Shown here piece by piece: positions 16,717 through 19,933 of a DNA stretch of 37,463 bases. The stretch's first letter is position 1. Each line of letters begins with the position of its first letter. The notes below the pieces were generated by a model, which saw only the letters and a program-made list of their open reading frames with translations, did no database searches and was not told the DNA's origin. A program made the translations under genes and the position numbers. Source of the DNA: Moniliella sp. 'wahieum' (lineage: Eukaryota); contig RSEE01000060.1 of assembly GCA_003971905.1 (NCBI GenBank), positions 372,001 to 409,463 on the forward strand, written 5' to 3'.

Positions 16717-19700
16717 TCAGTCCAAGTCGGCTCGTCCGGACAGGGGGAGAGGCAGTTTGGGCGAGGTGGCGGGAGAGGGGGAGGGAGTGCGGGTGCGAGT
16801 GCGAGTGCGAGTGCGAGTGCGAATGCGAGTGCGAGTGCGGTGGAAGGGCATGTGGGTGTACTTGTGCATGAGCATGAGCACGAGCATGGGGAGGGGAGGG
16901 GGCTGGAGCGGAACAGAAGGGTGAGCAACGCATGGGAAAGGGTGTGTGGCAGCGTGGTGGGCAAGTGGGGCCGACGTGGCCCGGAAAGCGGGCGGGGACA
17001 ACCGTCTTGTTCGTTGGTAGCAGCAGCGGGGAGCGGGAGGCCAAAGGCGCGCCTGTACTTGCGCCTGTACTGGCCCCGCACCAGCACCTGCGGCCAGACC
17101 CGACGTCGGCATGCTGGTACGGGGAGCAACTGGGCGAGCGAGGCTGAGGTGCCGTGCGCTCGAAAGAGAACTCCCACTGGTTGTGCCACGTGAGTGCGCA
17201 GGAGAAGGGGGCAAAAGGTGTGGGCTTGCGTTGGCGTCTGTCCCCCCGCCGCCGAGGGGAGGAGAAGGGTGCCTGTCGCGACAGCCGAAGCGGCCGTGTG
17301 CGACTTGACATTGGGACTGTGGCGCGACAAAGACACGGGTCCGGTCCAAGTAGGCAGCGAGGGGAGGGGCGAGGTGTCAGCGGTCGTTCCCGTGTGGGTG
17401 TGCGGAAACTAAAGGGTTCGAGGCAGAGGTCCACCCGGTAGCCACGGTCGAATTGGATGTAGAACGCGTACGCGAGTCTGCCTTGGCTCTCGCGGTGTCG
17501 TGGGAGGGGGAACGAGTTCGCCCGAGGGGTGGCTGAAGCCTAACCCGGCCGAGGGGGCATCCGCCCCGCCGAGCCGCATGGCGAAGCGGAGGGAGTGGAT
17601 GGGTGAGCCACGTGGGACTGGCCCGCTGCGGGAGTGCGATGGGCCGTCTCTTGCCGGAAACCGTGGCCGGTTTCGCGCCCTGGAGCAGGACCGAGCGTAA
17701 TGCCCGAATGGCTTTTTGGGTGCATCGGCCGTGAGCAGAGAGGAGCAGAGACCAATCATCTGCAGCAGCCGTGCTCGTCCCTCAGCGGCAGGATCTTCGG
17801 GAAAGAAGGTGCAGAAGCATGCGGCACGGATGAGTTGGCGCTTCGCCCTGAGCCTACCGGCCCAGAGGCCATAGCCCCGCAGCACCCGAGCACGACTCGC
17901 GCATGTAGGCAAACAGGTACATTAGCTGCTCCCCCGCGGCAACACCACCTCGTCCCGGAATGCTTGAAGGCACAAATGCCGCACATTCAACTCGGGTGTG
18001 GGCGAGACCCCACTTGCAAGGGTCAAGGAGGAAGGGGCATGCGACGAGCTACCTGCGCCCATATCCTCCTGCTGAGCATGTTCGGTAAGAACGTCGGTGG
18101 CCCCATGCTCCCGCAGCACATTGGCTCTGTTGTTGGCCATGAGACGGGCAAATGCGGGTTCCGAGTACAAGGGAACACAAGACAGCCTCGACGTACGGTA
18201 CCACTTGTTGCCAGTACTCTGTCCATACTTGGGCCATGGTGGTTACGAGCGCCAAGCCCTGCAGTGCGGTTAGGCGGGCGTTCAACATCCCCACGCCCTC
18301 GATCACCAAGGCCATCACTTCGGCCGTAAACGTTTCCAACGCACGCGCCGGTCTTCGTTCGCGGCAGGTGACGAAAATGAAGGCAGGCTTGGCTGTTCAC
18401 CTCGTCCAACACCATCCGCGTCCCATTGCCGGCGAACAGCGGGAGCACTTTCGAACACACTGCCCTCCAGCTGTTGGAGGCATACCAACTCGAGGAAGGG
18501 GTCCCAAGTGAGGGAAGGGGCGTCGAACCAGCGCCCGCTGGCTCAGGAGAGGGGAAGTAAGACTAGGTAAAGAAGGATTCATCCCTCGGGAGAAAGAGCC
18601 GTAGATGACTGAGGGGGAGGGGATGCGAGATGGCGCATCTGTACTGAAACTGAAACGGCCACCATAGCTGCTGCTTAGGACGTCCCCACCAAGTACACTG
18701 CCATCTCCCGCAACAGAGGAAGCATCTCCCAATTCACGTGCGAGAAAGCGCACTCATACGCATTGCTCCCCCCCGGCCGTAGCCGTCCCGTCCCAGTCCC
18801 AGTCCAGTAGAGACACCTGGAAGGGAGGGGAGCGAAGGGAGGACAGTGCTGGGTCGAGAGCGGGAGGGAAGGATGCCACGCCATTGTAGCCCAGCGAAGC
18901 GAACTGGAGTCGGTCGAGTCGGTGTGGCCCGCGATGAAGGGGGCTGGGAAGCCCACCACCCAAGATGGTGTAAGTGGATGGTCGCCCATGTGGGCAAGTT
19001 CAACCCGGCGAGATGGTCGGTATTGTTCTTCTCGAGCACGCGGACAAAGATGTACCGCCCAGCAGAGGGGGTGGCCATGTCGGACCGGCCAGGGACAAGC
19101 CTTGGGCCTGCATCTGGGCGGTTTGGGCCGTGGCGGCGGCCATGTCAAGCGCCGCCTCGGGCGAAGGCGCGGGGGGAATCACACCGGGCGTCATGCGCGC
19201 CGGCACAGCAATTTCAACCCGGGCCCAGCCGGTATGGTTGAGGGCGGTCTGGACGTAATTCAAGCGAGGATCGGGCCAGGGCAGGCCATGCCGGGCGGGG
19301 CAGCATCATGGAGGCTGAGCAAGACGCGCATCAGCTCTGCCAGGGCAATGCCATGAGAAACAATCACAATGTGGACCACGTCGCGAGGGATCTGCCGCCC
19401 CGACAAGGCCTGTGCGCCGGCATAGTGCGCCGAAGGCGCTTCGTTCCGCAGCGCCTCGACTCGGGGCAAATGTACCGCCGCACGGCGGTGGCCATGCGTG
19501 CGTTGACCTCCCTCCAGCGACTCGCCGTGGGGAACTTGGCGAGGCGGTGGGCAGGAGCGGGGGGGTGGCCGTGTCGATGCGCGGGGGGGGTGTCGTGGTG
19601 GACCAGGCCTTGCCCTCGGCAGCGCCAAAGTTCTGCTCGCGCAGGGTGGCGGTGAGGACGTGGGCACAGGCGTGGTGTGGGCGGCGGTGATGGCGTCGAC

Positions 19701-19933
19701 GACCTGGGCGGCACGGGCGAGGTCGGAGGAGTAGATGGCAGCAATGGGGGTGGCGGCAAAGTAGGAGGCGAGCGCGGCGGTCTGGGCCTTGCCGTCGGGG
19801 GCAAGGGGGCGTCGGTGACGCCGGTCCAGGTGGTGGGGTCGGGGATGGCGGCCTGGCATTGCGGACGAGGGTGACGAGGAGGGAGCGTAATGGGTGGAAG
19901 GGCAGGGGGCGGCGGGCGGGGCGTCGAGGGCAT
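16717..19933 (-). CDS. Putative histidine-phosphatase (PGAM-fold) / HbrB (Bit61/PRR5, TORC2 accessory) fusion protein; frameshifted, 3' end approximate
   Basis: N-part: LLVTLVRNA..WTGVTDAPL..G..Q..IAAIYSSDLARA..LREQNFGAAEG..GESLE..IVIVSHGIALAEL..NHTGW..NNTDHLAGL. C-part: WRAVCSKVLPLFAGNG..LNARL..QVWTEYWQQVVPYVEAV..LNVRHLCLQAFRDEVVLP..RARLLQM. Overlapping ORFs 18734-19078 and 18397-18753 bridge the two domains with no intergenic gap. Confidence 0.72.
16785..16839. repeat. (GCGAGT)n hexamer microsatellite (His-Ser repeat in one - strand frame)
   Basis: About 9 copies visible. Confidence 0.9.

Follow-up and report, generated by a model that had tools for sequence, protein, structure and literature searches.

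This locus raises the question of whether one gene joins a histidine-phosphatase-type domain to the HbrB (Bit61/PRR5/Protor) domain of a poorly understood accessory subunit of TORC2, a kinase complex that controls growth, and, if it does, what such a protein could do. The window analyzed here, 37,463 nucleotides of contig C60, comes from an error-prone 69.5-Mb assembly of GC-rich fungal DNA, in which indels have broken the frame of the gene; its coding sequence therefore has to be read with the help of its genomic copies and of its relatives in other fungi.

Layout and reading frame of the gene

The start and stop codons, an alignment of four copies and a chain of open frames place the gene on the minus strand at 16717..19933, with its ATG at 19933 and its TGA at 16717-16719, about 1,080 codons and no need for an intron. 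From the N to the C terminus it encodes a pseudo-phosphatase of the His_Phos_1 type (19000..19933), a linker rich in Ser, Gly and Pro (18479..18999; 174 aa in a sister pair of copies), an HbrB helical domain that includes two C-terminal helices (17680..18478) and a low-complexity Ser/Pro/His tail (16717..17679), which ends in a short motif common to the paralogues. The phosphatase segment is TIGAR-like, carries a Pro/Ala-rich insertion before its last strand and is colinear with its homologues. A Pfam scan of 15 window frames found one or the other domain in four of them: His_Phos_1 at E 1.5e-10 (41.5 bits) in frame 19263-20099, and HbrB in three successive frames at E 0.006, a match below the Pfam cut-off, 5.6e-9 and 1.7e-5. 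The two HbrB matches above the cut-off of 22.7 bits score 36.7 and 25.4 bits, and the domain reaches 74-90 bits in less broken copies of the genome. Both domains, as well as the start and the stop, lie where a sequence-only reading of the window had placed them.

Non-coding 7-base tandem runs (for instance CGTTGAA and GTGTTGA repeats) at 20205-20245 and 16495-16535 flank the gene, and downstream of it, at 16180-16275, a stretch of some 90 consecutive G, or C on the minus strand, may be a long-read artefact. Among the neighbors, 7 of 123 frames matched Pfam, with a RING finger at 4149-5078, an expansin-like EXPB1 domain at 7037-8154, Fis1 at 9848-10375, a cyclin at 13058-13669, EXPERA/EBP at 15241-15741 and a C2H2 zinc finger at 24498-25379; these identities reveal no functional link to the fusion.

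An HbrB profile search of the genome returned six loci, and in all six HbrB lies behind a phosphatase-like domain; neither a stand-alone HbrB gene nor a stand-alone close relative of the phosphatase domain turned up in this genome. Three of the loci are further copies of the DNA of the gene, on C58 (94% identity) and on C52 and C63 (73%), and the remaining two, on C4 and C16, have a more degenerate phosphatase-like domain; the six copies form three paralogue pairs at 94-96%. C58 is syntenic with the window, and the other pairs show no synteny with it in stretches of 8.5-9 kb except for two dispersed repeats. These repeats, at 35765-36065 and 832-883 of the window, also lie beside the paralogues on C63, C4, C16 and C52, at 75-97% identity. 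Twin loci at 90-96% identity occur genome-wide, and the assembly looks as if a hybrid or polyploid genome, with an older duplication behind it, had been left unphased. Genome searches also found at least two Rictor loci, both frameshifted, at least one match to a Sin1-type CRIM domain and at least four to Fis1; the six fusion loci thus stand against at least two for Rictor and at least one for Sin1.

Across 18990-18470, where the two domains would have to be joined, the three raw window frames hold one, three and two stops, and since every frame is interrupted the window alone cannot show a fusion. The sequence-only reading had named this interval as the place where a genuine in-frame stop, after polishing, would count against it: the raw window frames all carry such stops, and the sister copies run through the linker without any. 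An alignment of four copies over 19933-17690 contains 78 gap events, 53 of them frame-breaking deletions and 13 frame-breaking insertions found in a single copy; because the gaps are mostly private to one copy, the pattern of long-read error, we attribute the frame breaks to sequencing indels. In C63 and C52, three frames without a stop chain, with no base edited, into 508 aa that lead from the phosphatase through the 174-aa linker into HbrB; they overlap by 82 aa, of which 80 are identical, and by 47 aa, of which 46 are. When the C4 and C16 twins are used to fill each other's gaps, one frame has no stops against 11 and 4 in the others. A frame-aware alignment of the window itself needs at least 11 shifts and no stops, a zero that is partly built in because the settings favored shifts over stops. 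A majority-vote read-through of the four copies gave no single open frame, and the chain of unedited frames was used in its place.

The linker also evolves as coding sequence. Relative to the C63/C52 reference, its window copy differs at 47, 31 and 110 first, second and third codon positions over 168 codons (pS 0.79, pN 0.22), and in the C58 twin dN/dS against the same reference chain is 0.09 for the linker, 0.11 for the C-terminal half of the phosphatase and 0.10 for HbrB. This third-position bias, together with the low dN/dS, argues that the linker is coding and under purifying selection. A single reading frame runs from the phosphatase to HbrB, a conclusion that we regard as close to certain, and the proposed fusion holds on the strength of the open frame chain in the sister copies and of this selection. 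Two neighboring genes, or an artefact of assembly, would account for the linker stops in the raw window frames but not for the unedited chain, the gap-filled third pair, the codon-position bias or the single-chain proteins of the same architecture in eight named genera, and we consider this explanation highly improbable. Two details of the initial argument do not survive. The join quoted in its support, GGAMRMSALSR/ELGDASS, is in the wrong frame: relative to C58, the window lacks one base near 18753, and the twin reads unbroken there as ..NAYDVRFLAREL... The plea that there is no room for a terminator plus promoter carries no weight, since 520 bases can suffice for a spacer between fungal genes; it is the codon evidence that counts. 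No RNA sequencing run holding the locus is listed. In one sequencing run, 4 of 30 bins were covered by a single 269-base contig at a depth of 2, too thin to count; this contig lacks base 18362, the one flagged as a private insertion in the window.

Range and ancestry of the fusion

The guess that a similar architecture exists in smut fungi proved right. A profile of five HbrB pieces from this genome matched 328 representatives at E 0.001, and among 43 relatives scanned from the best 150 of these, picked by rank or for a long N-terminal region, 12 contain both Pfam domains. The 12 fused clusters include eight named smut-related genera, all of which we take to be Ustilaginomycotina, namely Tilletiaria (XP_013241023), Violaceomyces (PWN50750), Thecaphora (KAN0061755), Meira (XP_025351753), Kalmanozyma (XP_016290424), Ceraceosorus (CEH14973), Jaminaea (XP_025362609) and Parajaminaea (CAO1630430), and they are annotated as phosphoglycerate mutase-like, GpmB or hypothetical. 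When 10 of the fused relatives were combined into a phosphatase profile, it matched 15 of the 150; the three additional matches are two N-truncated models and a degenerate one. Named HbrB entries from Botryobasidium, Trametes, Ceratobasidium, Phaffia, Kwoniella and Coniophora have no phosphatase domain, none was detected in two Tilletia clusters, and in Malassezia psittaci a remnant was seen by eye. The domain has decayed repeatedly, in Jaminaea, whose model lacks the RHG motif, in Malassezia-type remnants and in C4/C16. Word-index protein searches with single HbrB pieces, confined to longer proteins, returned no match, which reflects their sensitivity, since the full HMMER search did find HbrB relatives.

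In a quick HbrB tree of 120 rows, from which 33 of the 150 hits had been dropped for short coverage, 17 fused or remnant-bearing rows, three of our own, two from Tilletia and five unlabelled ones form one weakly supported 27-row group (72), and no fused or remnant-bearing row falls outside it; our own rows cluster at support 95, on long branches. This topology fits a single origin of the fusion. Relatives of the phosphatase that stand alone are known from Rhodosporidiobolus, Rhodotorula and Austropuccinia, and they share 39-42% identity across 93% of the phosphatase region. These basidiomycete PGAM-like proteins (P0181, P0185, P0186; 292-373 aa), which have no HbrB domain and an intact RHG motif, are likely to represent the donor family; those of the closer short hits that were read resemble pieces of fused genes. 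We posit a single fusion event among the ancestors of the Ustilaginomycotina, between a stand-alone basidiomycete phosphatase and a stand-alone HbrB gene; the enzyme would still be active in most members, its phospho-accepting His having been lost, and the gene triplicated, in the lineage studied here.

The proteins of the eight genera share the domain order, the linker motif and family-specific motifs with the present gene. Unlike this genome, most of them keep RHG or RHA, and their database names refer to neither HbrB nor TORC2. No description of the fusion was found in the full-text literature searched, a corpus that leaves most subscription journals outside; it is absent from the titles and opening lines of the abstracts of the listed TORC2 papers, and neither the available text of PMC13216928, as regards HbrB, nor two supplements of PMC11541241, as regards a Protor, Bit61 or HbrB row, contain an entry. 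The portions of PMC11277029 and PMC4612450 at hand add nothing on the fusion. The gene is a real and apparently undescribed form, spread across the subphylum, of a TORC2 subunit that is already known, with a pseudo-enzyme specific to this lineage; what is new is the recognition of the architecture and the finding that the whole lineage has lost the catalytic His, and no new family is involved.

The phosphatase pocket and the lost histidine

TIGAR is the top match of the N-terminal domain of the homologues in both sequence (homologue P0003, E 6e-16) and fold (homologue model, E 1.9e-13); the ESM Atlas gave no usable match for a whole homologue and only PGAM-like clusters for the N-terminal domain. 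The sequence-only reading had spoken of a full PGAM-fold domain, and although fold and His_Phos_1 match bear this out, it overlooked that the catalytic His is missing from every copy. In all six, the phospho-accepting residue of the R-H-G motif is replaced, by Asn in four and by Ala in two. The window reads R-N-A at 19855..19863, with the Asn codon AAT at 19860-19858; the codon is AAT in C60 and C58 and AAC in C63 and C52, and C4 and C16 read R-A-P. Two synonymous Asn codons spread over four copies exclude a read error. An intron hiding a genuine RHG exon was ruled out, since the motif and the conserved Trp that follows it are as far apart as in the homologues. By comparison, all 10 of the homologues aligned over their full length have RHG or RHA, and all three stand-alone relatives have the His; one further homologue model, besides that of Jaminaea, falls outside this comparison because it begins downstream of the motif.

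The rest of the pocket is largely preserved. The motif Arg, the second Arg (SDLxRA, 19713..19715), the acid/base Glu (LREQ, 19636..19638) and the second His (SHG, 19353..19355) are retained in all four copies of the window's clade; Arg, Glu and the second His are shared with TIGAR (human 3dcy, zebrafish 3e9c/3e9d) and the branch-1 PhoE/CobC/PspA proteins of PF00300, from which the present domain differs in its Asn or Ala and in its fusion to a subunit of a kinase complex. C4 and C16 have lost the second pocket Arg as well, and in the window's clade a conserved Asn behind the motif is replaced, a change that may weaken phosphate binding. Selection has nonetheless acted on the His-less domain: between the Asn-bearing paralogues, dN/dS is 0.21-0.24 in the N-terminal and 0.11-0.15 in the C-terminal half, with 35-53% of synonymous sites different. 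From these alignments, the phosphatase of this genome is very probably catalytically dead, and the loss of the catalytic His in all six copies suggests that an enzyme was turned into a binding or sensing module. TIGAR acts on fructose-2,6-bisphosphate and 2,3-BPG; at 22-28% identity, this specificity is not transferable.

HbrB, TORC2 and competing explanations

In the PDB, a 64-sequence HbrB profile, three of its sequences from this genome, finds only yeast Bit61 (9rsq_E; E 9e-17, Bit61 289-540), which the homologue P0003 also matches at E 1.2e-4; phmmer with the C63 piece alone did not find Bit61. The domain has diverged: of the family-conserved positions C63 keeps 19 of 34 and C4 24 of 40, compared with a median of 0.91 and a minimum of 0.64 in the other rows. 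A model of the 142-aa C63 piece (L016:3926-4351) is all-helical with a pLDDT of 88, and fold searches with it list cullin repeats and not Bit61 (best Z 9.2, rmsd 3.4, 105 aligned), at a Z level common for helical bundles. Like Bit61/Bit2 of yeast and Protor1/2 (PRR5/PRR5L) of PF08539, the protein carries HbrB after a long unstructured arm; unlike them, it begins with a folded phosphatase-type domain, exists as three paralogue pairs and has a diverged surface. The linker (YDxxLxREL, at about 18760-18725) shares the motif that C58 reads as NAYDVRFLAREL with 26 of 133 non-fused HbrB hits, which identifies it as the N-terminal arm of a basidiomycete Bit61 protein. As a helix motif, YDxKLxxREMxRLG is conserved in the otherwise disordered arm of P0004, P0006, P0024 and 23 other stand-alone HbrB proteins, and it is a candidate binding motif of the basidiomycete Bit61-like proteins.

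The accessible text of 10.1101/2025.07.02.662585 describes Bit61 as binding only the HD of Avo3, at the TORC2 rim, on a charged, membrane-facing surface, and as a protein of no known function whose mutants have no reported phenotype. Homology to this family, together with the Rictor and Sin1-type genes of the genome, points to tethering at TORC2, and the HbrB domain of the fusion probably binds Avo3; no Rictor relatives were found in metagenome contigs. Our preferred reading, to which we give roughly even odds, is a Bit61-type TORC2 subunit that carries a pseudo-phosphatase predicted to bind a ligand without hydrolyzing it. By analogy with yeast Bit61, HbrB would dock on the HEAT-like domain of Avo3/Rictor at the membrane-facing rim and the flexible linker would present the dead phosphatase, whose Arg/Glu/His pocket could grip, but not cleave, a sugar phosphate, a glycerate phosphate or a phosphopeptide and so serve TORC2 as a sensor or adaptor. 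That a ligand is bound, and that its binding has a regulatory effect, is the more tentative part of this scheme and less likely than not. AlphaFold2 models the full-length Meira homologue as two domains that are folded and joined by a disordered linker (pTM 0.41). Folded as separate chains, its domains reach a docking score of 0.40 against 0.01 for the best of three controls (runs 0.49, 0.00 and 0.40; contacts agreeing at 71%; partner pLDDT 67 or higher), a mark attained by 51 of the 78 solved pairs and by 2 of the 108 mismatched ones, with passes at 0.60 or under, which comprise 5 of the 78 solved pairs and all 4 passing mismatches, being more often wrong than right. The runs lend weak support to a mutual docking of phosphatase and HbrB in this His-bearing homologue rather than in the present gene.

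The loss of the motif His, which favors a binding module over an enzyme, bears directly on whether the domain could still hydrolyze or transfer phosphate, at low activity or by a route independent of that residue. The retained Glu, second His and both Arg would be in keeping with residual activity; however, the part of PMC7926622 at hand has the family act through a phosphohistidine on the motif His, and His-to-Ala mutants serve, by the titles of PDB entries 3e9e, 4ij6 and 5zr2, as inactive substrate complexes, so that we hold a surviving enzyme to be very unlikely. A role beyond catalysis has a counterpart in TIGAR, which, in the available text of PMC11109194, binds the kinase TAK1 without its catalytic residues His11, Glu102 and His198. 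A less improbable course is that the join was fortuitous and the phosphatase a metabolic enzyme unrelated to TORC2, decaying wherever it is redundant into a ligand-free structural appendage. The repeated degeneration described above, the absence in Tilletia, the long, variable and disordered linker and the long branches of our own copies could all be read this way; a passenger would hardly keep its dN/dS at 0.11-0.24 across such synonymous divergence, retain both Arg, the Glu and the second His in the entire window clade or persist in eight genera, and we think such decay unlikely, if the most serious of the competing accounts.

It could also be that these proteins, having diverged and been triplicated, have lost Rictor binding; HbrB would then be a helical scaffold on which different partners assemble, and the dead phosphatase a reader of phosphoproteins. 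The modest conservation of HbrB, its cullin-repeat-like model and the excess of fusion loci over the Rictor loci found would suit a TORC2-independent role of this kind, which we nevertheless judge improbable: the genome search found no stand-alone HbrB gene, Rictor is present, dN/dS in HbrB is 0.10, and Bit61 and Protor1 themselves have few interface residues in common, according to the accessible part of 10.1101/2025.07.02.662585.

The preferred reading of a ligand-binding Bit61-type subunit has a bolder version, which we regard as unlikely though worth stating: a smut-type TORC2 subunit with a phospho-metabolite pocket of its own, in which the TIGAR-like domain would fold back on HbrB and link membrane-bound TORC2 to a phospho-ligand, be it glycolytic or of another kind, having become in this genome a pure sensor with different pockets in its three paralogues. 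If this were true, the fusion would be a Rosetta-stone clue that Bit61/Protor elsewhere in eukaryotes recruits a histidine phosphatase or reads a phospho-ligand. The architecture is already in public databases, under misleading names. As a conserved TIGAR-like fusion, it offers a concrete connection of TORC2 with phospho-metabolites that can be tested, in a group of fungi that includes genetic models, and its naturally His-less versions are ready-made candidate ligand traps.
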